From assembly GCA_964478235.1 (NCBI GenBank), contig CAYZGX010000001.1, positions 163,850 through 227,849 of the forward strand: a stretch of DNA of 64,000 nucleotides. Direction: 5' to 3'. Below are positions 16,887 through 29,522 of this stretch, piece after piece. The stretch is from an uncultured Gammaproteobacteria bacterium (GTDB taxonomy: Bacteria > Patescibacteriota > Patescibacteriia > Magasanikbacterales > GWA2-37-8). The translations under genes were made by a program, and so were the position numbers. How positions within the stretch are numbered: position 1 is the stretch's first letter; the number at the start of each line of letters is the position of its first letter. Under the pieces are notes generated by a model. That model did no database searches and was not told the DNA's origin. It saw only the letters and a program-made list of their open reading frames with translations.

Positions 16887-16916
16887 ACCCGGTCGCAGAA
16901 AGCGATCGGGTTTTTA
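16887..16916. terminator. Intrinsic terminator after nrdG (also facing the 3' end of rnpB)
   Basis: Hairpin CCCGGTCGC-agaa-GCGATCGGG followed by TTTTT. Confidence 0.6.
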
Positions 16917-16918
16917 AG

Positions 16919-17361
16919 TGTTTACAGCAATAAGCCGAATTTTGTTCCCCTTACGGGGTGATAATCATTTCTCTTGCCGGTACATTGCTATACCGATCAT
17001 CTGCCCGTCCTAAAGCTTTTAAGCTGACAGATATACTAGCGAGCGAACTTTCCGAGGCTATACCTGATGTATAGACACGCTGCTCTTGCACCAGATAGGG
17101 TTTAGCACTTGCTCTCTATTGCTAAAGAGCCGAGTAGAGTAGCTGTAGTCTTAAGAACAACAACTCCCCTACACTTTTCACCTTTCATCCCGATTATAGC
17201 CGGAATTAGTATTGTCTCTGTGCCACTGTCCCGAAGCGGATATTGCTATACGCCTGGTGGAGGTTATCCACTATCCTTGTCCCAATAGGTAGCGATAAAA
17301 ATTGGGGGTGTTCGGACTTTCCTCGACGACCCAAAGGTCGGCGCGATTATCTACTGTAAAC
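16919..17361 (-). ncRNA. rnpB: RNase P RNA, bacterial type A
   Basis: The reverse strand contains CGAGGAAAGTCCGAACAC (CR-I/P4), GGATGAAAGGTGAAAAGTG (P10-P12 GGGUGAAA region) and ACAAAATTCGGCTTATTGCTGTAAAC (CR-V ACAGAAnnCGGCUUA), with a P1 pairing to the 5' GTTTACAG. A promoter lies immediately upstream. Confidence 0.8.
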
Positions 17362-17367
17362 GGGCGT

Positions 17368-17459: not shown

Positions 17460-18878
17460 ATGAAGCGTCTTGAATTAGCCCTCACCGTTCTTCTTTTACC
17501 GCTTGACTACTGTCTTATCGTCTTAGCTGGGCTCACCGCCTACAGCTTGCGCTACACGTCATTTATTACGGCTATCCGCCCGATTCTTTTTGATTTATCA
17601 TTTGAAAAATTCTTACCCATCCTCCTCGTTGTCGCCTTGGGTTGGGTAGCTATTTTTGCTTTTTCCGGGCTCTATCGCACCAACCCTAACCGCAAACTGG
17701 CTCGTGATATTAACAAAATTATCATGGCCTGCTCCACCGGATTTGCCGGTATTGCCATTTATTTATTCTTTACGCTTCAAAAATTTGACTCCCGCTTCCT
17801 AGTTCTCACTAGCTGGATTCTTGCTATCATCTACGTCAGCTTAGGGCGCATCCTAATGCGCGGGGTTCGCAGCCTCTTCTATCGCTTTGGCCTAGGACTG
17901 CGTAAAACAGTGATTGTCGGCAACGAAACAATTGCTGAAACTATTAAAACCGCTCTTCTCGAAGAACCTCGCCTTGGCTACCGCATCACCGGCACCTATA
18001 CTAATTTTTCTGAACGCACCAAAAAAGAACTGCTCAAAAATATTCCTGACGAATTTATTCTTTCCAACCCTCGTGGCGACGAAAACGAAACACTGTCAGC
18101 TGTTGAATTTTGCAACGAGCACCATATCACTTTTAAATATTCTGCCGACCTCTTCGCCACCATCTCAAGCAACATGAGCGTGTCCACTATTGCTGGTATC
18201 CCCATTATTGAACTTCGCCGCACTCGTTTATCCGGCTGGGGCCGCGTTTTTAAACGCACCGTTGATATCGTCGGCAGTCTAGTCTTCATCATCATATTGT
18301 GGCCATTTTATATTATTACTGCCCTATCTATCCTGCTTGAAACCGGTCGCCCAGTTATTTATCGCAACGAACGAGTTGGTCAATACGGTCGAAAATTCTT
18401 CACCCTCAAGTTTCGCTCTATGTACCAAGCGCTCTCCACTGGCACACAATTTGGTGCCTCTGGCGAAAAAGCTCTCAAAGAAGAAGCTAAACTTATCAAA
18501 ACCAGCAGCGTCAAAAATGGTCCTGTTTACAAAATACAAAACGACCCTCGAGTCACTCCCTTTGGCCGTTTTATCCGCCGGTGGAGCATTGATGAGCTTC
18601 CGCAGTTTTTCAACGTTCTCAAGGGTGATATGAGCCTCGTTGGCCCTCGCCCACACCAACCTCGTGAAGTTGATCACTACGAAACACACCATAAAATTGT
18701 TTTAGCGATCAAACCGGGAATAACCGGTATCGCTCAAATCTCTGGTCGAAGCAACTTAAGCTTTGAAGAAGAGATTCGCCTTGATACCTTCTATATCGAA
18801 AACTGGAGTTTACTTATGGACATCATTATTTTGTTAAAAACTCCTTTTGTTGTACTTCTGCGCAAAGGTGCCTGGTAA
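17460..18878 (+). CDS. Undecaprenyl-phosphate sugar-1-phosphate transferase (bacterial sugar transferase, WbaP/ExoY-like)
   Basis: N-terminal multi-TM region, then a C-terminal bac_transf domain ([24 protein letters not shown] ... SLVGPRP ... KPGITG). Confidence 0.9.
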
Positions 18879-18887
18879 CATTTCCCT

Positions 18888-20006
18888 ATGAAGATAGCCC
18901 TAGTCCATGACTATCTTGCTCAAGACGGAGGGGCGGAGCGAGTTTTAAAAGCATTTCACGAGCTGTGGCCACAAGCTCCTATTTTTGTATTGTTCTACGA
19001 CAACAAAAAAATAACCGATTTCTCCACAGCTACTATCAACGAATCGTTTCTCAAACACGTTCCTGGTATCTATACTCATTTTCAGTGGTATCTCCCACTC
19101 ATGCCTTTGGCTACTGAAAAATACAACCTCGACGCCTTTGATGTTGTTCTCTCTTCTACTAGTGCCTTTGCCAAAGGGGTTATCACCCCTCCACACACCA
19201 TTCATATCTCCTACTGCCATACTCCAGCACGCTATTTATGGAGTGATACCCACCACTACGTTGACGGACTTCCCTACAACCGACTCGTGAAGTCTATTTT
19301 GCCAAGGTTTATCTCCAAAATGCGTTTGTGGGATAAAATGAGTGCTGATCGAGTTGATGTTTTTATCGCCAATTCAAAGACTGTTCAATCACGTATTAGC
19401 AAATACTACCGTCGTGACAGCACCATTATTCACCCCCCAGTTGATGCCCAAAAACTTCGTCTTAGCCCCACTGTCGAAGATTATTTTGTAGCCGGCGGAC
19501 GTCTTGTTCCCTACAAACGCATCGACCTGGTCATTCATACCTTCAATCGCCTCGGTTGGCCACTTAAGATTTTCGGTACCGGCCCTGAATTAAAACGGCT
19601 CCAAAGAATTGCCAAACCAAACATCACTTTCTTAGGGCGAATTAACGACGAAGAAAAAGCCGAGCTTCTCAGCCGGGCTAGCGCCTTTATCCATCCGCAA
19701 GTAGAGGATTTTGGAATAACCGCTGTTGAAAGTATGGCCTCAGGACGTCCAGTTATTGCCTTTTCCGAAGGTGGAGCTCTCGAAACAGTTGTCGCCCGAG
19801 AAACCGGCCTCTTCTTCACCGAACAAACCTGGGAATCACTGCTCGACACACTCCTCACCTTCAACAAAAATACTTGGGATAGCGCTCGCATCCGAGAACA
19901 CGCTCTCCAATTCGACTTGAGCGTTTTTAAAAACGCTATCAATAGTCACGTCACCGACCGATTTGAAGAATTTAAACGCGGTGTCACCCAACCAACTCTT
20001 GTATAA
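18888..20006 (+). CDS. Glycosyltransferase family 4
   Basis: MKIALVHDYLAQDGGAERV N-terminus and an E-x7-E motif (EDFGITAVESMASGRPVIA). Confidence 0.85.
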   Translation: MKIALVHDYLAQDGGAERVLKAFHELWPQAPIFVLFYDNKKITDFSTATINESFLKHVPGIYTHFQWYLPLMPLATEKYNLDAFDVVLSSTSAFAKGVITPPHTIHISYCHTPARYLWSDTHHYVDGLPYNRLVKSILPRFISKMRLWDKMSADRVDVFIANSKTVQSRISKYYRRDSTIIHPPVDAQKLRLSPTVEDYFVAGGRLVPYKRIDLVIHTFNRLGWPLKIFGTGPELKRLQRIAKPNITFLGRINDEEKAELLSRASAFIHPQVEDFGITAVESMASGRPVIAFSEGGALETVVARETGLFFTEQTWESLLDTLLTFNKNTWDSARIREHALQFDLSVFKNAINSHVTDRFEEFKRGVTQPTLV

Positions 20007-20009
20007 CCT

Positions 20010-21149
20010 ATGCATATCGGGATAGATCTGCGATCACTCGAACAAACTGAGCAAACTGGTGTTGGCGTGTTTACTCGTGATTTAGTTGAGACACTTGCGA
20101 CCGTTCTCCCTAAAAATTCATTGGTTGGGTTTGTTAATAAAGGCAGTAAAAAACTTTCCACCCTACCTCAATTTTCATCACGCCTCTCCACTAAACTGCT
20201 TAACACCAGCCTCCTAACAACCAATCACCCACACCTTGATAGATTGCTTGAAGAAAAAGCTCAATTGGACAAACCGCTCGATTTTTTTATCTCTCCCAAC
20301 AGTCATTTTACCAGCATCTCTCCTCAGACTCACCACATCCTGGTGATCCACGATATTGCCTTTGCCCTCTTCAAAGACTACTACACGCTCAAACAGCACC
20401 TCTGGCACCGACTCGTCAATCCAGCAAAACAAAGCTCAGCGCAAAATACCCATCTGGTTGTACCGTCGCACAATACAAAACGCGATGTGATTGATTATTT
20501 CAACATTAGTCCCGAAAAAATAACTGTCATTTATCCGGGCACACCTCTCACCAAAACAGAACCGTCTTCAACAGAAAAAATTCGTGAAAAATATAACCTA
20601 CCTCCCCGTTTTATTTTAGCTCTCGGCACCAACGAGCCGCGAAAAAATACCCCAGCCCTACTTCAAGCCTACGAACAGGCTGCACACAAACTCCCCCTCC
20701 CCTATGCACTAGTCATCGCCGGGGCAACCGGTTGGAAAAACACAGCCACCGAGCGCTCTATTAGCCAATCGGCGGTCAAAAAAAATATCCACATGATTGG
20801 ATATGTGGACGAAACGGATAAAGGCGCCCTCCTTCGTGAAGCCAGCCTCTGTATTTACCCCTCTTTTTATGAAGGGTTTGGCTTTCCAGCACTCGAAGCA
20901 ATGCAGGCCGGCACACCAGTTATCGCAAGCAACCGTTCATCGCTTATGGAAGTCACTGGTGCCTCAGCCTATGCCATAAACCCACACCATCCCGAAGAAA
21001 TTGCCGAGGGTATTTTTCGCCTACTAACCGATACTCAACTACGAAACAACCTGATCGCACAAGGAAAAACTCAAGCCGATCTTTTTTCATGGAAAAAAGC
21101 TGGTGAAGAATGGGCTGAACTGTTTAAGCGATTACAGAGAAAGATCTAA
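20010..21149 (+). CDS. Glycosyltransferase family 4
   Basis: Signature YEGFGFPALEAMQAGTPVIAS. The start lies 1 nt after the previous GT4 stop. Confidence 0.85.
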   Translation: MHIGIDLRSLEQTEQTGVGVFTRDLVETLATVLPKNSLVGFVNKGSKKLSTLPQFSSRLSTKLLNTSLLTTNHPHLDRLLEEKAQLDKPLDFFISPNSHFTSISPQTHHILVIHDIAFALFKDYYTLKQHLWHRLVNPAKQSSAQNTHLVVPSHNTKRDVIDYFNISPEKITVIYPGTPLTKTEPSSTEKIREKYNLPPRFILALGTNEPRKNTPALLQAYEQAAHKLPLPYALVIAGATGWKNTATERSISQSAVKKNIHMIGYVDETDKGALLREASLCIYPSFYEGFGFPALEAMQAGTPVIASNRSSLMEVTGASAYAINPHHPEEIAEGIFRLLTDTQLRNNLIAQGKTQADLFSWKKAGEEWAELFKRLQRKI

Positions 21150-22421
21150 ACCAGACAAAACATCAGCTAATGTTGGGAAAAGTGTAAACAACACTAACAC
21201 TACACTGACAATAATCAAGCGGATGATTGATTCCCACGTAACAAAGGCATAAAAAAATTTTCCTGCTCGAGACTGTTCTGGCAAACCAAGAATTTTTCCT
21301 TTTCGAAGCAATAACACCAAGAAAATAAGGATAATCGGTAAAAGCATGCCGTTGACCACCTGCGCAAAAATCATAATTTGGAACAAAGACACGAATGGCA
21401 ATAACGTAAAAATACAGCTTAGGCCAATAGTTACTGCCATCAAGCCGTAAAATACCCGGGCTTCTTTCCAGGTTGTATCCATACCATGCTCAAACCCAAA
21501 AGCTTCACAAATAGAGTAGCTCGTCGTAAGCGGTAAAATAAAAGCACCCAAAAGCGACGCAAAGAAAAATCCAACACCAAAAATAATCATCGCCGCCGAA
21601 CCAAGAATTGGTGTCAGGGCACGGGCTGCCGTTGATGCCGACTCCACTACCACACCGTGATCATACAAAACTTCTTTAGTGGTTATCATAATAGCTCCTG
21701 CAATCAGACAGGTAAAAAAAGCACTAATATACACTTCAATTTTTTGAAGACGATACTGTTCATGACTCGTTCCTTTATCAACCACGTACGACTGAATAAA
21801 AAATTGTCCCCACGGGGTAATAGTGGTGCCCATCACACCAAGTAGCGCCATCAAAAAAGCATAGTCAGCCGGCAAACTAACCGTCAAACTTTCCCGAGCC
21901 ACCTGTACCCAATCAGGTTGACTCATTACTGCCGAAATAATATAGACGAGCAAGAAAAGCGAGATGGTCATAAAAAAGCGCTCTGCCCGCTTAAACGAAC
22001 CTTTATACAGAAGAACCCAGACCAAAACACCAAAAAAAGGCACGGAAATCCATTTACTAATTCCAAACAATTCGAGTGCTGCTGCAATACCAGCAAACTC
22101 AGAAGTTGTGACGGCTAAATTCGCAAAAAATAACGTAGCAATGGCTAAAAACGTCCAACGAATATTAAACTGCTCGCGAATGAGGGCGGACAAACCTTTA
22201 CCGGTGAATACCCCGAGACGAATACCGATCTCTTGAGTAAAAGCGAGGGTGATGAAGTTGACCACTAAAACCCAGAGCAATCCATAACCAAAACGAGACC
22301 CGACGAACGAATAGGTACTAATCCCGCCAGCATCATTATTGGCCGTCCCAGCAATCAAGGCTGGCCCAAAAACAGCCAACGAAGCCATGATTTTCGAGGT
22401 TGTTGACTTAAAAAAACGCAT
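21132..22421 (-). CDS. NRAMP-family transporter with non-canonical metal-site motifs
   Basis: Eleven or twelve TM helices. TM1 region AGTANNDAGGISTYSFVGSRFGYGLLWVLVV is Nramp-like but lacks DPGN. The TM6 region GVMGTTITPWGQFF lacks the MPH Met and His. Confidence 0.8.
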   Translation of the reverse strand: MRFFKSTTSKIMASLAVFGPALIAGTANNDAGGISTYSFVGSRFGYGLLWVLVVNFITLAFTQEIGIRLGVFTGKGLSALIREQFNIRWTFLAIATLFFANLAVTTSEFAGIAAALELFGISKWISVPFFGVLVWVLLYKGSFKRAERFFMTISLFLLVYIISAVMSQPDWVQVARESLTVSLPADYAFLMALLGVMGTTITPWGQFFIQSYVVDKGTSHEQYRLQKIEVYISAFFTCLIAGAIMITTKEVLYDHGVVVESASTAARALTPILGSAAMIIFGVGFFFASLLGAFILPLTTSYSICEAFGFEHGMDTTWKEARVFYGLMAVTIGLSCIFTLLPFVSLFQIMIFAQVVNGMLLPIILIFLVLLLRKGKILGLPEQSRAGKFFYAFVTWESIIRLIIVSVVLVLFTLFPTLADVLSGLDLSL

Positions 22422-22432
22422 ACATCCAGAGA

Positions 22433-23638
22433 TTAAGCTTCGGGGTATAAAAACCGCATCACATCATCAATTGTCACCATACCGAGCAGACGATGTTTGG
22501 TGTCAACAACAGCGGCCGTGTACAAATCGTATTTAGTCATGGTGCGCACCACATCACGAATACTATCTTCAACCTGCAAAACAGAGATGGGGTGATCTTT
22601 GGGAATTAAATCACTCAATAATTGAGCTGGCTCAGAAATAAGTAACCGACGAAGCGATACCGCTCCTCTAAACGTACCGTTAGCATCAACCACGTACACA
22701 TACAAAAGCGAGCGCATTGATTTGGAACGAAGTTTAATCTCCTCTAGTGTTTCTGCCACTGTCCAATCAGGCTGAACTTGCACCATGTCAGTAGTCATAA
22801 GACCGCCAGCTGAGTCATCTTTATACACCAAAAGACGCTCAACATTACCAAGCTTACGATCAGGTAATTGTGCGAGCACTCTTTTAGCCTCTTGTTCAGG
22901 CAACATTTGAATCAAATCAGTCAGCTCGTCAACTGGCATTTTTTCCAAAATGTCAGCGGATTTTTCAGGGCCGAGGCGACTCACCAAAATCTTCTGACGG
23001 CGGGGATCAAGCTCTTCGAGCACTTGCGCTGCTGTATCGTGATCAAGCGAAGTCACCAGGCGTGCCCCATGCTTAGCGCTTAAATCTTCAACAATGTTAG
23101 CTAAATCAGCCGGATGTAACCGAATTAAATCATTAGACAGCGAATCAACACGCAGAGCCCCCTTCACTCGCTGAGCTTTACGCCAATCAATCAAATTAAC
23201 TTTAAAGAAATCAAAGACATCCAAGAGATCGACGCCTAAACGACGTAAGATTGCTTTAAAACTCACATCAATACCAAGCACCGACATCTGATCACGAAAT
23301 ACTCCTAATTTTAAATCGTTCACTCGGACAACACGCGCTCCATCAATATCTACAATCTGTTCATCAATAATATCTCTATCTAAAAAAACACAGTCTTCAC
23401 TCGGAGCTGTTTCCGGAATGGCGTGTTCTGGATTTTTCAAAGTAATTTCAGCATTACCAAGATTGGCCACAAATGAAAATGGGATAGCCTTATCCCCACG
23501 ACGAGTGGCCACAACTAAAAACAGGAGCGGAGCATACCGACCTGGTTTAGGATCTATTAAAATGTCTTTTAGACGCCCGACTACCGTATCTGCGCTGTCT
23601 CGCACCTTCAGGCGAAGTAATTGACTAAAATACATCAT
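22433..23638 (-). CDS. MgtE N-terminal domain plus CBS-pair protein without transmembrane domain (cytosolic Mg2+-sensor-like module)
   Basis: PRC-barrel-like N-terminus, MgtE_N helical domain (ILEKMPVDELTDLIQMLPEQEAKRVLAQLPD), then two CBS domains. No hydrophobic C-terminal domain. It lies 11 nt upstream of the Nramp gene on the same strand. Confidence 0.75.
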   Translation of the reverse strand: MMYFSQLLRLKVRDSADTVVGRLKDILIDPKPGRYAPLLFLVVATRRGDKAIPFSFVANLGNAEITLKNPEHAIPETAPSEDCVFLDRDIIDEQIVDIDGARVVRVNDLKLGVFRDQMSVLGIDVSFKAILRRLGVDLLDVFDFFKVNLIDWRKAQRVKGALRVDSLSNDLIRLHPADLANIVEDLSAKHGARLVTSLDHDTAAQVLEELDPRRQKILVSRLGPEKSADILEKMPVDELTDLIQMLPEQEAKRVLAQLPDRKLGNVERLLVYKDDSAGGLMTTDMVQVQPDWTVAETLEEIKLRSKSMRSLLYVYVVDANGTFRGAVSLRRLLISEPAQLLSDLIPKDHPISVLQVEDSIRDVVRTMTKYDLYTAAVVDTKHRLLGMVTIDDVMRFLYPEA

Positions 23639-23797
23639 AAAAAGCTACCCGTAGTATACTCGCCTTAAGACAAAAATACAACTACAGACAAGGTGGATAG
23701 AATACTCTATTTTGGCTAATTTGTCAATAAAAAAGGCTTATTTGCCGGCTGGGCTAGCCAAGTAGAGGAGCATCTGGCATACTTACGGGAAGACTCT

Positions 23798-24925
23798 ATG
23801 CGTATTGGAATTGACGCTCGCATGTATGGCTCAGCCCAAGGTGGTTTAGGGCGCTACATTGAGCAACTACTTATCCATCTAGAAAAACAGCTTACCGACG
23901 AAGAAATGGTTGTTTTTTTACGTCGCGACAATTTTAACGCCTACCAGCCAACCCACAAAAACATCACCAAAGTCCTAGCTGACATCCCCTGGTATGGTTG
24001 GCGCGAACAACTACTGTTACCCAAAATTATTACCGCATCAAACGTTGATGTAATGCATTTTCCTCATTGGAACGTACCACTGCGCTATAACCAGCCATTC
24101 GTTGTCACTGTCCACGACTTGCTCCTCCTGCACTTCCCCACTCGCGAAGCGAGCACCCTTGGACCAATTACCTACATGCTTAAAAACTGGGTTTTTAAAC
24201 GCGTCTTGCGTCACGCTGTCGCCTCTTCCCGCCTCATTATCACTCCTAGCGACTACACCAAACAAGATATCGTCAAAACACTGGCTATTTCTGAAAAGAA
24301 AATACATGTTACCAAGCAAGCAGCGACTGTTTTTGCTAAAACCACACCAAAATCATTGGATCACTACGGAATTACCAAGCCATTTGTCCTCTATGTCGGT
24401 GTAAGCTACCCCCACAAAAACCTCGACACACTCCTCACTGCCTGGACATTATTTGAAAAAAAATACGGTACCGATTACCAGCTTGTTTTGGTTGGAAAAG
24501 AAAATTTCTTTTATCGTCGACTGCTCAAAAGCGCCACTGCCAAGGCTTGCCAAGGGCTGGTGTATACCAATTTTGTTCCTGATGAAGAATTACCAAAATT
24601 CTACCAAGAAAGTCGTCTCTACGTACTCCCAAGCCTCTATGAAGGTTATGCTTTACCAGCACTTGAAGCTATGGCCTATAACCTGCCAGTAGCTTCCTCG
24701 AACGCCACCTGCCTACCAGAGGTGCTGCAAGACGGGGCTCTCTACTTTGATCCAACCAACCCTGATTCAATCGTCTCAGCCTTATTTCAAGGGCTTACTA
24801 ACGAGTCAACTCGTCAAAAATTAAAAGAAAATGGAGCTCAAATCGTGGCCAGCTACCAAGCTCACGACCTTGCCCGAAAAACCCTTGCTCTCTATCACCA
24901 AGCAGTGGATAACCAGACCCTCTAA
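23798..24925 (+). CDS. Glycosyltransferase family 4
   Basis: MRIGIDARMYGSAQGGLGRY N-terminus and YEGYALPALEAMAYNLPVASS signature. Confidence 0.85.
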   Translation: MRIGIDARMYGSAQGGLGRYIEQLLIHLEKQLTDEEMVVFLRRDNFNAYQPTHKNITKVLADIPWYGWREQLLLPKIITASNVDVMHFPHWNVPLRYNQPFVVTVHDLLLLHFPTREASTLGPITYMLKNWVFKRVLRHAVASSRLIITPSDYTKQDIVKTLAISEKKIHVTKQAATVFAKTTPKSLDHYGITKPFVLYVGVSYPHKNLDTLLTAWTLFEKKYGTDYQLVLVGKENFFYRRLLKSATAKACQGLVYTNFVPDEELPKFYQESRLYVLPSLYEGYALPALEAMAYNLPVASSNATCLPEVLQDGALYFDPTNPDSIVSALFQGLTNESTRQKLKENGAQIVASYQAHDLARKTLALYHQAVDNQTL

Positions 24926-25011
24926 ACGAGTTCCGAAAAACAACAAAATAGTGTATACTATAAGGGTGAACACATTTTTTGTTTCGCTTGTCAGCATTAA
25001 TCGTGTAGCTC

Positions 25012-27621
25012 ATGTCATCCGCTCATAAGAGAGTCCAATTACGACGCTGCCAGGGTTGTAATAAACCCGGCCACAATCGCGCTCGCTGTACCGCCCCTCT
25101 CAGCGCTGTTGTGTCGACACTCCAAAAAACTATCACCAAATCACCTCGCGTTCAAAAAACTGAACCGACCGTTGTTGTTGCTAACAAAACTATTCCAACT
25201 ACCCCACCTGCCCCTCAGACATCCCGGCACCTCAAAATGTTCGTCCACCATGTTGATTCCCGCCCAGAACACTCTCCACATGTTGTAAACCTACGCTCCA
25301 AAAACGACATTAGTTGGAAAAAAACAACTGCCGCCTCTCCAGAAAAAAACGATTCACTCTATCACACCTATCATCAAACAATTGTCGAAGAAGCGACCAC
25401 GCTCCCGCCAATAACCACACTACCAATTTCATTACTACCAGTTTCTAAAGAACCCGGCGCTCTTCGTTCTTGGTTCAAAAAAATAACAACAAAGCCAACC
25501 CAATCCGACGAAGCAGTTTTTTCTGTAGAGCTACAAAAAACCTCTCCTCGACCAACAACGATTACCCCTAATCAAAATTTTCAGTTAGAGAAAACACCAT
25601 CTCTAACAGATCGCTGGCAGAATCTTACCCAGATGCTTCCTGGTGCCAAGCGTCTGGTGGCCGCTGGAACACTCTTAGCAATACTCGTCAGTGTTCCTGG
25701 TCCAGCATATGGCTATTACCAAGATATTTTAAGCACTAAAGCCTCAGTTATCAAAGATTCAAGCGAAGCTTTTTTAGCTCTTCAAGACTCCACCATCGCT
25801 TTAAAGCAAGCTGATTTCTCTAGAGCTGAAATAGCCACCGCCCAAGCTCTCGGCAAATTTAACACGGCTTTAAGCGCCCTCAACGACCACCGCTTCATTG
25901 AAACGTTGACCAGCATTATCCCTACCGTCGGCGGATCACTCGAGAGCCGACAAAAGATTCTACTAGCCGGTCAAGAAATTACCGTTGGCAACAGCTATCT
26001 ATTACAAGGCCTCAAAAAAGATGCTACTACTGGCGGATTTTCTAGCCACCTACAAACAGTCATCGAAAATCTCCACCTCGCTATTCCTAACTATGAAAAA
26101 GCTGCTCAAAACTTAGCCGAGGTTGACCCAAAAACACTTCCTATTGAATACCAAGCACAATTCGGAGATTTTCGTCGCCTCATGGGCAGCGTGCTTAGCG
26201 ATTTTAAAACTATCGACAGTGTCGGTTCATCATTTTTGGATATTTTTGGGACCAAAGGTACTCGACGCTATATCATTGTTTTCCAAAACCCAGCTGAACT
26301 TCGTCCAACTGGTGGTTTTATGGGAAGTTTTGCTGTGCTCACCGTCAAAGATGGAGCAATCACTAAGATGACTGTTCCTCCAGGCGGAACGTATGACCTC
26401 CAAGGACAGCTACGCAAAGTTGTTGAGCCTCCTACCCCCCTACTTCTTTCCAACAAACGTTGGGAATTCCAAGACGCCAACTGGTTCCCAAGCTTCCCGG
26501 TAAGTGCTGAAAAAATAATGTGGTTCTATCGCAACAGTCTCGGCGAAAGCGTTGATGGAGTTATTGCTATCAATGCCTCTGTTTTGGAACGCCTACTCAG
26601 CATTATGGGCCCAGTGACCGATGAAAAACGTGCTGTCACCCTACACAGCGACACCGCTCTCGCGACTATTCAAAAAATTGTTGAAGAAGGTCCAGAAAAA
26701 CAGATTAACAAACCAAAACAAATTATCGCTGATTTGGCTCCTGGGCTGGTAAAACAAATTAGCACGGCCAATACCGCTCAAATCATTCCTCTTTTAACCG
26801 AACTCCAAGAGGCTTTAGAACAAAAAGAAATCCAGGCCTATTTCACCGATGGAGAAGTGCAGAACACTATCAAAAACCTTGGTTGGTCGGGCGAGCTGGT
26901 TGCCACCAATAAAAACCAGGATTATGTTATGGTCGTCAACACCAATATTCAAGGCGAAAAAAGTGACGCCAATATATCTCAAACAGTGAGCCACCAATCA
27001 GTAGTAGCTCAAGACGGAACTATCACCAACACCGTCACTATTACTCGTCGTCATAATGGTACAAAAGGTGAAAAATTATACGGCACTACCAATATTAACT
27101 ACCTACGCTTATACGTTCCAGAGGGAAGCTCACTACTCAGCGCCAGTGGTTTTATGTGGCCCGACGAAAAAGCCTTCCGCGCTCCGCTAAAGTGGGCTGA
27201 GAAAGACACTCTTCTCACCGCCGTTGAAGATGAACAGTCTATCGACAGCGAAACTGGCACCAGAGTGACCAATGAGCTTGGAAAAACCGCTTTTGGCAAC
27301 TGGGTTATTACCGAACCAGGCAGTGAAAGCACTGTCAGCTTCACCTACCGCCTGCCATTCAAAATCCGCCCAATCATTGAACAAAAAACTGCTTGGGAAA
27401 AAGTCGTAGCCCCACTCACCAATCCAATCGCTCGTTACCAACTGATAGCTCAACGACAATCAGGATCGCTATCGACCTTTGATAGTCAGGTTATTTTTAC
27501 CAGCGACTGGCACCCCTACTGGCAAGAAGGCGAGAATATGACCCTTGCCACCAATGGCGCTCGTATCGCTCCAACCAACCTCACCAAAGATACCGTGTGG
27601 AGCTTGGTGATGCAGCGCTAA
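25012..27621 (+). CDS. Large membrane-anchored protein: N-terminal CCHC zinc-knuckle and Thr/Pro-rich cytoplasmic region, single TM, large extracytoplasmic domain (DUF4012-like, tentative)
   Basis: 869 aa. CQGCNKPGHNRARC at residues 13-26, TM at about residues 215-235, extracellular region with RYIIVFQNPAELRPTGGFMGSFAVL. Confidence 0.55.
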   Translation: MSSAHKRVQLRRCQGCNKPGHNRARCTAPLSAVVSTLQKTITKSPRVQKTEPTVVVANKTIPTTPPAPQTSRHLKMFVHHVDSRPEHSPHVVNLRSKNDISWKKTTAASPEKNDSLYHTYHQTIVEEATTLPPITTLPISLLPVSKEPGALRSWFKKITTKPTQSDEAVFSVELQKTSPRPTTITPNQNFQLEKTPSLTDRWQNLTQMLPGAKRLVAAGTLLAILVSVPGPAYGYYQDILSTKASVIKDSSEAFLALQDSTIALKQADFSRAEIATAQALGKFNTALSALNDHRFIETLTSIIPTVGGSLESRQKILLAGQEITVGNSYLLQGLKKDATTGGFSSHLQTVIENLHLAIPNYEKAAQNLAEVDPKTLPIEYQAQFGDFRRLMGSVLSDFKTIDSVGSSFLDIFGTKGTRRYIIVFQNPAELRPTGGFMGSFAVLTVKDGAITKMTVPPGGTYDLQGQLRKVVEPPTPLLLSNKRWEFQDANWFPSFPVSAEKIMWFYRNSLGESVDGVIAINASVLERLLSIMGPVTDEKRAVTLHSDTALATIQKIVEEGPEKQINKPKQIIADLAPGLVKQISTANTAQIIPLLTELQEALEQKEIQAYFTDGEVQNTIKNLGWSGELVATNKNQDYVMVVNTNIQGEKSDANISQTVSHQSVVAQDGTITNTVTITRRHNGTKGEKLYGTTNINYLRLYVPEGSSLLSASGFMWPDEKAFRAPLKWAEKDTLLTAVEDEQSIDSETGTRVTNELGKTAFGNWVITEPGSESTVSFTYRLPFKIRPIIEQKTAWEKVVAPLTNPIARYQLIAQRQSGSLSTFDSQVIFTSDWHPYWQEGENMTLATNGARIAPTNLTKDTVWSLVMQR

Positions 27622-27656
27622 ACGCTGTCCGTTCATTATTAGGGTTATTTATTTGT

Positions 27657-29522
27657 ATGCAACATCATAAAACCGCCCCTGCTTCTGATACTCCGCCTGA
27701 CGAGAAAAAATCACATCATCGTTTTACCAAAAAAAGAGCTTCTTCAGAAAATACCGACGAAGTCTACAGTGAAAAAAACATTGATCACACCATAGCTGCT
27801 ATTTATCAAGACGATAATGGTGAAATTCCTAATATGCAACGCATGACTATACAACGAAGCGGTTCTTTTGCGCGTTTTTTCACCTTTATCTTTTTAATCG
27901 GTATCGTCGGGGCAGTTTTGGCTTGGACCGGTTTCTTTTTCCTACCAAACAGCGACACCTCTCGCGACCAAGTCAGCTTAGTTTTTGAAGGTCCAAGCAC
28001 TGTTGAGCTCGGAGCTACCACCACCTTTAAACTAGTCTATGGAAACGATGGGACAGTTGATGTTACCAAACTCACTCTCAACGTCTATTACCCAGAAGGT
28101 TTCTACTTTATCACCAGTTCGAAGCCAACCTCTAATGCTGGTCGAAACGAATGGAAATTAGCCGATCTCTCTATCGGAAAAAATGCCGAACTACTCATTA
28201 CTGGTAAATTTTACGGCACACCTGATGAACAAAAGTCGTGGCGCGCTTTTTTAAACTATACCCCAACCAACTTTAATTCTGAACTACAAAAAATTAGTGC
28301 TAAAAATGTCATTATCGGCGACTCCCCCCTCTCTCTCACTATGTCCGGCCCAGACAAAGCTTCAATTGGTGTAGACGCGGCCTATAGTTTTGCTATTGAA
28401 GCCGACACCGATTGGAAAGGGCCACTTTTATTGGTACCACTTGTTCCAACCAACTTCCAAATTTCTTCATCCTCACCAGCGCTTGATAAAAACGGTCGTT
28501 GGAATGTTGTCTTTACCACTTCCACCCCTCGCCCACTCTTTAGTTTGCGTGGTCGTTTCAAAGATAGTACGGTCACAAGCACTATCAAAGCTAATCTGTA
28601 CGTTTCTATTCCAACATCAAACCAACTATTCGCCGTTGCTCACACTGAAATTACTCCAGAAATTGCTAAAAACTCCATTCCTTTTGCCACCGCTATCAAC
28701 GGCACAACCCAAGACTTTGACTCTCACCCTGGAGAAAAATTGGCTATCACTGTCAATCTCAAAAACACTTCGCCAGACGTGATGAAAAACGCCACTATTA
28801 GTCTTATTTTTGATGCCCCTTCAGTCAAACGAGCAAGTGCTCTTAGTTGGGGACAAATCAGCGACAAAAATGACGGTGTCATTGTTGGCGAACAAGTCAG
28901 CGACACTCTTCGACGCGGCACTATCACCTGGACCAGCAAACAAATTCCAGCACTAGCTCAAATTCAACCAAACAGCACCATTACTTTTGACCTCGCCCTG
29001 CCCATCAAAGACACTCGTGACTTTGACTTTAGCACTAGTAAAGAAAATACTATTAAAGTCGTTACCAACGCCACCTATCTTGATAAAACCAACACGACAA
29101 TTTCCACCGCAGCGAGCCCAATCACCATCACCCTTATTAGCGATCTCGCTTTTGAAAACCGAGACTCGGTGACCACTAATAGCCAAAGCAAAGAGGAACA
29201 TGCTGTTTCCTGGGTACTCACCAATAGTTACCACGATTTGAAAGATATCACTGTCACTGCCGATATCTATGGCGACACCACTTTCCTCGCTGGATCAACA
29301 TCTGGCGGATCAATGGTCTTCTCAGCCAAAGACAAACGCATCACCTGGACTATCCCTTCCATGCCTGAAAGCATTGATGTAGCCAACGGCACCTTCACCC
29401 TAGTCGTCAACGCGAAAAACCCAACTCAAAATACCTTACTTTCTAAAGTAAAAATCGAAGCCACTGACACTGTGGCCGGAAAAAAGATACTTCTATCTGG
29501 CAATGAAATAAAGCTTAAATAG
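27657..29522 (+). CDS. Membrane-anchored surface protein with repeated beta-sandwich (Ig/CARDB/DUF11-like) modules
   Basis: Start taken at the ATG at 27657 (the ORF track extends to 27597, overlapping the upstream gene). Cytoplasmic tail, TM FFTFIFLIGIVGAVLAWTGFFFL, then about 500 aa of repeats of the form LTLNVYYPEGF / ITVNLKNTS / ITVTADIYGD. Confidence 0.5.
   Translation: MQHHKTAPASDTPPDEKKSHHRFTKKRASSENTDEVYSEKNIDHTIAAIYQDDNGEIPNMQRMTIQRSGSFARFFTFIFLIGIVGAVLAWTGFFFLPNSDTSRDQVSLVFEGPSTVELGATTTFKLVYGNDGTVDVTKLTLNVYYPEGFYFITSSKPTSNAGRNEWKLADLSIGKNAELLITGKFYGTPDEQKSWRAFLNYTPTNFNSELQKISAKNVIIGDSPLSLTMSGPDKASIGVDAAYSFAIEADTDWKGPLLLVPLVPTNFQISSSSPALDKNGRWNVVFTTSTPRPLFSLRGRFKDSTVTSTIKANLYVSIPTSNQLFAVAHTEITPEIAKNSIPFATAINGTTQDFDSHPGEKLAITVNLKNTSPDVMKNATISLIFDAPSVKRASALSWGQISDKNDGVIVGEQVSDTLRRGTITWTSKQIPALAQIQPNSTITFDLALPIKDTRDFDFSTSKENTIKVVTNATYLDKTNTTISTAASPITITLISDLAFENRDSVTTNSQSKEEHAVSWVLTNSYHDLKDITVTADIYGDTTFLAGSTSGGSMVFSAKDKRITWTIPSMPESIDVANGTFTLVVNAKNPTQNTLLSKVKIEATDTVAGKKILLSGNEIKLK

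Follow-up and report, generated by a model that had tools for sequence, protein, structure and literature searches.

An operon of an NRMT-clade SLC11 transporter gene and a gene for a pore-less MgtE-like protein in a Patescibacteria-type genome region

The window analysed here, a 64,000-nt stretch of contig CAYZGX010000001.1 (positions 163,850 to 227,849; GenBank assembly GCA_964478235.1), contains a two-gene operon on the minus strand. Its genes encode a transporter of the NRAMP-related magnesium transporter (NRMT) clade of SLC11 and, upstream of it, a soluble protein that resembles the cytosolic part of the Mg2+ channel MgtE, referred to below as the partner (Table 1). The open reading frame (ORF) listing placed the two genes 11 nt apart. 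A database protein 100% identical to the transporter is annotated from Met12 (418 aa), while the longer 429-aa start fits the N-termini of homologues. Upstream of the partner lies a divergent intergenic region of 159 nt, in which a promoter-like, sigma-70-like site was observed 61 nt 5' of the partner start codon; this site is a candidate only, since the region-wide count of such sites was not above that in shuffled sequences. Scanned in full at Rfam gathering scores, the window gave no M-box or other riboswitch, and neither did positions 22300-24100 at E ≤ 10. Any control beyond transcription would have to be post-translational.

Table 1. Features of the operon and of its surroundings, in window coordinates.
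Feature	Position	Strand	Evidence
Partner gene (NrmT-associated MgtE-like ancillary protein), soluble, 401 aa	22433..23638	-	ORF, Pfam, AlphaFold2 (AF2), Foldseek
NRMT-clade SLC11/NRAMP transporter gene, 429 aa (418 aa if start = Met12)	21132..22421	-	ORF, Pfam
Spacer, partner stop codon to transporter start codon, 11 nt (operon junction)	22422..22432	-	ORF coordinates
N-terminal tandem PRC-barrel module of partner	23165..23638	-	Pfam (barrel 1), AF2, structure match
MgtE_N helical domain of partner, residues 169-275	22814..23134	-	Pfam, 2yvy alignment, AF2
CBS pair of partner, residues 280-397	22448..22801	-	Pfam, 2yvy alignment, AF2
D30-A-G-G33 codons (DxxG half of NRMT signature)	22323..22334	-	Alignments
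T199-T-I-T202 codons (TxxA/T half of NRMT signature), followed by P203-W204	21816..21827	-	Alignments
Promoter-like site TTGACA-17-TATTCT (candidate only)	23699..23727	-	10/12 consensus match
GT4 glycosyltransferase gene, flanking the transporter	20010..21149	+	
GT4 glycosyltransferase gene, flanking the partner	23798..24925	+	
Cell-envelope glycan locus	17460..29522	+	
Bac_transf sugar transferase gene	17460..18878	+	
DUF4012 protein gene, 869 aa	25012..27621	+	
ORF following the DUF4012 gene	27597..29522	+	
Bacterial class A RNase P RNA	16915..17362	-	141 bits

The transporter matched the Pfam Nramp family (PF01566) with an E-value of 9e-84 over profile positions 1-351 of 357, and about 11 hydrophobic membrane-helix regions were observed (maximum Kyte-Doolittle 19-residue mean of 2.55). 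In a search of all PDB sequences the top match was EleNRMT (7qia; E 3e-97, 329 bits), with 43% identity over 371 residues. The classical NRAMPs (DraNramp, ScaDMT, EcoDMT, human NRAMP1/2) and the plant aluminium transporter matched with E-values of 7e-20 to 1e-5 and at most 75 bits. The NRMT clade is distinguished by a DxxG–TxxA/T signature that replaces the DxxN–A/CxxM of classical NRAMPs, with TxxT as an accepted variant (Ramanadane et al. 2022, PMC8806188). In the window transporter D30 and G33, which align with D55 and G58 of EleNRMT and stand where classical NRAMPs have DPGN, were both conserved in 146 of 146 relatives. At the position of the classical A/CxxM-P-H, conservation among ungapped relatives was 144/144 for T199, 143/144 for T202 and 144/144 for W204. 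The alpha-6b histidines of DraNramp (H232 and H237) correspond to W204 and I209, and to W and N in EleNRMT. We also found T199, Q354 and E108 aligned with EleNRMT T224, Q379 and E133, respectively, and these three residues together with W204 and I209 were invariant or nearly so across the 146 relatives. Because the signature is present and the other functional positions agree with EleNRMT, the alignments make it near certain that the transporter belongs to the NRMT clade, with the recognised "T" variant at the methionine position. T224 of EleNRMT is an ion ligand; when it is mutated, Mg2+ transport is lost and Mn2+ transport is not. As a clade, NRMTs are characterised by uptake of Mg2+ (and Mn2+), but not of Ca2+, uncoupled from H+. 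EleNRMT carries both Mg2+ and Mn2+ and is not coupled to H+ (PMC8806188), and by analogy Mg2+/Mn2+ is the predicted substrate of the window transporter.

The partner was found to consist of a PRC domain (residues 1-71, E 8e-9), an MgtE_N domain (174-275, E 6e-25) and a CBS pair extending to residue 397 (E 9e-17) according to Pfam, and it matched only the first 251 of 450 positions of the NCBIfam mgtE model, far under the cut-off. Residues 167-400 matched the cytosolic domain of T. thermophilus MgtE (TtMgtE; 2yvy, E 3e-32), and the AF2 model of the full protein (predicted local distance difference test, pLDDT, 84.5) returned MgtE cytosolic domains as its leading Foldseek matches (E ~1e-17). The protein ends four residues past the CBS pair, so that the plug helix and pore are missing; no hydrophobic segment was observed (maximum Kyte-Doolittle 19-residue mean of 1.09), and Pfam gave no match to the pore domain PF01769. 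A split MgtE with its pore encoded nearby was considered and rejected, as a hidden Markov model (HMM) of PRC-type pores found none in the window or in 163 loci; the positive control was detected, and since the model was built from one subclass, very divergent pores could be missed. Given no PF01769 match, no transmembrane segment and no pore gene nearby, the partner is not an MgtE channel.

These results agree with most of what the first-pass annotation of the window had described. It had identified the 429-aa protein as NRAMP-fold, with GYGLLWVLVV in the first helix (confirmed at residues 45-54), NNDAGG in place of DPGN (28-33) and TPW in place of MPH (202-204), and had likened the loss of the Met/His site to that in NRAMP-related Mg2+ transporters, in line with the alignments to EleNRMT and to classical NRAMPs above. 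Its account of the same-strand 401-aa protein 11 nt upstream, with PRC, MgtE_N and CBS domains and no membrane domain, as the cytosolic module of MgtE minus the pore was likewise borne out by the ORFs, Pfam, the hydropathy profile and both structural matches.

Residues 1-165 of the partner, when modelled alone with AF2, gave a compact unit of two beta-barrels (pLDDT 90.5; predicted template modelling score, pTM, 0.85), with barrel 1 at residues 1-71 and barrel 2 at about 85-158. The closest PDB folds were those of CdpB1/CdpB2 (8qzo, TM-score ~0.6), followed by the single PRC barrels of MTH1859, RimM and RC-H. The assignment as a tandem PRC-barrel rests on this structure match; the signal of a duplication is weak, with barrel 2 sub-threshold against Pfam PRC (E 0.24) and a profile-profile comparison of the two barrels (hhalign) giving an E-value of 0.14. 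In a search with this N-terminal module alone against 1.84 billion representative proteins, the matches listed fell into two groups, namely proteins of the ~400-aa partner type and proteins of 585-656 aa in which, according to Pfam, PRC, MgtE_N and CBS domains are followed by the MgtE pore (P0392, P0408, P0409, P0412, P0447, P0451, P0470, P0481, P0503). Over its whole length (residues 1-401) the partner aligned with the N-terminal ~400 residues of these PRC-type MgtE channels, at 30-36% identity. Because of this match we identify it, from the alignment, as the entire cytosolic half of such a channel, ending where the plug helix and pore would begin.

The pairing to which the first-pass annotation had drawn attention recurred in related genomes. 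An NRMT alignment was searched against contigs from one genome per species, and the best 80 of 508 relatives' loci were examined. A partner gene adjoined the NRMT gene on the same strand in 76 of the 80 (75 upstream and one downstream), and nearly all of these 76 partners had the full PRC, MgtE_N and CBS architecture. When metagenome contigs were searched with the partner, an NRMT gene was observed directly downstream in 71 of 71 informative loci, while a further nine contigs ended right after the partner and were not informative. The gap between the two genes was small, with a median of 7 nt and ≤20 nt in 80% of 141 related pairs. The NRMT-partner linkage is thus close to obligate. No fusion of the two proteins was observed among the matches listed (the top 120-150 of each search), in which the NRMTs contained PF01566 only (≤516 aa) and the ~600-aa proteins were MgtE channels.

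Most hosts of the pair were Patescibacteria (Magasanikbacteria, Peregrinibacteria and others), and the pair was also present in metagenome-assembled genomes (MAGs) labelled Chloroflexota, Actinomycetes, Thermoleophilia and Bacillota. Loci up to 95% identical to the window region (L001, L003, L004, L007, L008 and others) came from many MAGs named [quoted passage not shown]; these labels appear unreliable, as the region is clearly of Patescibacteria type. An Eggerthellaceae NRMT that is 93% identical to the crystallised EleNRMT construct had a 450-aa gene with PRC, MgtE_N and CBS domains 3 nt upstream, whose product aligned with the window partner over its full length at 32% identity. This Eggerthellaceae partner (locus L161, 2645-3997) carries a tail of ~45 residues with a strongly hydrophobic stretch, AVGIALAAVLFLALYTLVLFQIMGF, which, judged from its composition, is possibly a C-terminal membrane anchor. 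No such anchor was present in the window partner or in 152 of 152 partners of the Candidate Phyla Radiation (CPR) type, and none of these 152 had a tail of at least 20 aa.

The combination of the two genes, of which the first-pass annotation knew no earlier description, is already in the literature. Shin et al. [quoted passage not shown] The window locus is a further example, from CPR bacteria. The partner is not discussed in the EleNRMT paper (Ramanadane et al. 2022), and a 2025 preprint on MgtE classification (bioRxiv 10.1101/2025.05.26.656215) mentions neither PRC nor Nramp. We found no account of the partner's tandem PRC-barrel, of PRC-type full-length MgtE channels or of the partner's pattern of retained and lost ligands in the searchable literature, which is weak evidence as coverage was limited and most subscription journals lay outside it.

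We mapped the Mg2+ and ATP site residues known from the MgtE literature (PMC5882242, PMC5529423) onto the partner through a phmmer alignment and then onto an HMM alignment of 156 partners. The two aspartates of the Mg4 site, TtMgtE D91 and D247, correspond to window D237 and D392, with D in 137 of 156 and 152 of 152 partners, respectively, and that of the Mg6 site, D95, corresponds to D241, which was D in all 156. Mutating D91, D95 and D247 in TtMgtE prevents channel closure (PMC5882242). Two of the ATP-site residues, R187 and Y170, are kept as R330 and Y313. On this alignment the partners keep the Mg4 and Mg6 ligands of the N/CBS interface selectively.

With moderate confidence, we lean towards a system in which an uncoupled Mg2+/Mn2+ carrier is accompanied by a cytosolic Mg2+ sensor that would restrain it at high Mg2+. 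It is near certain which families the two proteins belong to; that one gates the other is something we infer. The partner would bind cytosolic Mg2+ at its Mg4/Mg6-type sites, its N and CBS domains would close as in MgtE, and the Mg2+-bound form, working in trans from the cytoplasmic side of the NRMT, would lower transport when the cell is Mg2+ replete. It would in this way supply the negative feedback that a potential-driven carrier needs because it is an electrogenic, uncoupled importer. Some NRMTs use an M-box and MgtE has feedback of its own, and we propose the partner as the source of feedback here because this locus has no M-box. The first-pass annotation had suggested a soluble sensor that gates or regulates the carrier; this is the feedback regulation on which Shin et al. 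2014 speculated, and it is plausible. A broader reading, which we put forward tentatively and would rate as somewhat doubtful, is that one sensor cassette may have two uses, in cis with the MgtE pore and in trans on the LeuT-fold NRMT.

Several observations weigh against such a regulatory role. Four of the 80 NRMT loci (L013, L016, L048, L063), all from Patescibacteria, had no partner within 6 kb by tblastn; their NRMTs retain the ion-site residues and lie between a FemAB-like gene upstream and recO-like and aminoacyl-tRNA synthetase genes downstream. Activity without the partner has been reported, as nrmT genes complement Mg2+ auxotrophy alone (Shin et al. 2014) and EleNRMT was active in liposomes (Ramanadane et al. 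2022, eLife 11:e74589). Co-expression of Acidobacterium capsulatum ACP2976 and ACP2977 in Bacillus subtilis "did not further improve rescue" (Shin et al. 2014); this null is not informative on feedback inhibition, because the assay scored rescue at limiting Mg2+ and not protection from overload. The PRC barrels belong to the MgtE sensor cassette and are not a dedicated NRMT adaptor, because they are present in cis in true MgtE channels.

Most of the remaining MgtE ligands also count on this side. The Mg7 residue E59 corresponds to window Q205 (mostly K/R in partners), and of the Mg5 residues D226 corresponds to window D371 with N in 98 of 156 partners, and D250 to R395 with R in 137 of 156. 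The plug-helix residues E258 and D259 (Mg2, Mg3) have no counterpart, as the protein ends before them. At the ATP site the adenine-stacking F227 is replaced by L372 (L in 150 of 152), N203 by P346 (usually K in relatives) and D188 by R331 (variable among partners). By this comparison the partner is probably without MgtE-type ATP binding, and it appears to be without the sites that coupled the MgtE sensor to its own pore. The overall residue pattern would fit a conformational switch that responds to Mg2+ and has another target.

The conserved acidic residues could also bind metal without gating, and Shin et al. 2014 listed "metal chaperone activity" as their alternative. The partner would then take over Mg2+/Mn2+ from the carrier or stabilise it, serving as a metal buffer or chaperone or as a factor for assembly or stability, and the PRC barrels, which are generic protein-protein interaction modules in CdpB, RC-H and RimM, would suit such a part. 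We consider this unlikely. At its millimolar cytosolic level Mg2+ does not require a chaperone, conservation falls exactly on the residues of the N/CBS sites that drive MgtE closure, and the same cassette gates, in cis, the channel pore fused to it.

We regard it as similarly improbable that the physiological substrate is Mn2+ or another divalent ion, with uptake tuned by Mg2+ or by another ligand of CBS proteins. The T199 residue is invariant and corresponds to EleNRMT T224, needed for Mg2+ but not Mn2+, and the partner derives from a Mg2+ sensor. What speaks for Mn2+ is the A. capsulatum NrmT, which has a partner and no riboswitch and in B. subtilis acted chiefly as a Mn2+ transporter, fully rescuing a Mn2+-uptake mutant and rescuing Mg2+ auxotrophy only at millimolar Mg2+ (Shin et al. 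2014); the window locus, too, is without an M-box, and EleNRMT carries both ions. The methionine position in the window transporter is Thr and not Ala as in EleNRMT, but TxxT is already accepted as a variant of the NRMT signature. That adjacency reflects co-regulation only, with the partner regulating other targets or being half of a split MgtE with its pore elsewhere, is very unlikely: TM-only (transmembrane-only) MgtE proteins exist (bioRxiv 10.1101/2025.05.26.656215), CBS proteins regulate many kinds of target and four NRMT loci have no nearby partner, but the pore search described above was negative with its control detected, and the NRMT gene followed in every informative partner locus, at gaps of a few nt and across several phylum labels.

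With the NRMTs, bacteria have a fourth class of Mg2+ importers. As these are not proton-coupled, the avoidance of overload calls for an explanation wherever a riboswitch is absent. The ancillary MgtE-like gene, on record as a loose end since 2014, was not taken up with the 2022 EleNRMT structures, and the linkage observed here includes a nearly identical relative of the crystallised protein. Our mapping leaves three conserved aspartates as candidate Mg2+ ligands and makes the regulatory hypothesis directly testable. The genome-reduced Patescibacteria may have in this pair an important way of obtaining Mg2+. If the free partner does dock on the NRMT and close it at replete Mg2+, it would constitute a transferable Mg2+ gate, this would be the first instance in SLC11 of regulation by a soluble subunit dedicated to the transporter, and NRMT biochemistry and structures would so far have covered only half of the native system.

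The pair lies inside a plus-strand cell-envelope glycan locus that contains a Bac_transf sugar transferase, three GT4 genes and a DUF4012 protein. Directly upstream of this locus lies the RNase P RNA. GT4 genes do stand on either side of the pair, as the first-pass annotation had stated, and the 3' end of the transporter gene overlaps the convergent one by 18 nt. They are on the opposite strand, and the neighbourhood recurs around the pair only in close relatives (L001, L002, L004, L006, L012, L022); for these two reasons we take the flanks as lineage-level synteny and reject a functional link between the pair and the GT4 genes. The DUF4012 protein starts with a zinc-knuckle-like CxxC...H...C motif, CQGCNKPGHNRARC, after which comes a long Thr/Pro-rich stretch of low complexity, and the 3' end of its gene overlaps the next ORF by 25 nt. 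Five tRNA genes were observed elsewhere in the window. GC skew was negative in every 2-kb bin over the 64 kb (-0.07 to -0.27), although the genes examined at 17-29 kb were mostly on the plus strand.

Among known systems, the nrmT pairs of Shin et al. resemble the window locus in that a homologue of the MgtE cytoplasmic domain is encoded directly upstream of, and in the same orientation as, an Nramp-related transporter. They differ in host lineage, the window probably coming from a Magasanikbacteria-like genome of the Patescibacteria/CPR. The A. capsulatum pair (ACP2976-ACP2977) is without an M-box, as is the window locus, whereas Clostridium acetobutylicum (Ca_c0685/Ca_c3329) has the partner divided over two genes and the operon under riboswitch control. 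EleNRMT of Eggerthella lenta (7qia, 7qic, 7qji, 7qjj), which was studied without its partner, has in common with the window transporter the ion-site Asp, Gly, Thr and Gln, the alpha-3 Glu and the replacement of the first alpha-6b His by Trp; the two differ at the methionine position (T202 in the window transporter, Ala in EleNRMT) and at the second alpha-6b His position (Ile and Asn, respectively). The near-EleNRMT orthologue shares the upstream PRC, MgtE_N and CBS gene, although its 450-aa product has the hydrophobic tail that the window partner does not.

The cytosolic domain of TtMgtE (2yvy, 2yvx, 5x9g) likewise consists of MgtE_N and a CBS pair and is 33% identical to the window partner over ~230 residues, with the Mg4 (D91/D247) and Mg6 (D95) ligands common to both. 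Unlike TtMgtE, the partner has an extra N-terminal tandem PRC-barrel and no plug helix or PF01769 pore, its Mg2/Mg3 residues are absent, those of Mg5/Mg7 are largely replaced, and F227, N203 and D188 are replaced. The archaeal CdpB1/CdpB2 proteins (8qzo, 8onw) resemble its first 165 residues in fold (Foldseek E 3e-6, TM-score ~0.6) at an identity of ~14-15%, a likeness of fold only that implies no functional relation. In the PRC-type MgtE channels (P0392, P0409, P0447, P0451, P0470, P0481) the same N-terminal tandem PRC, MgtE_N and CBS domains continue into PF01769, whereas the window partner stops after the CBS pair and the NRMT gene follows instead.

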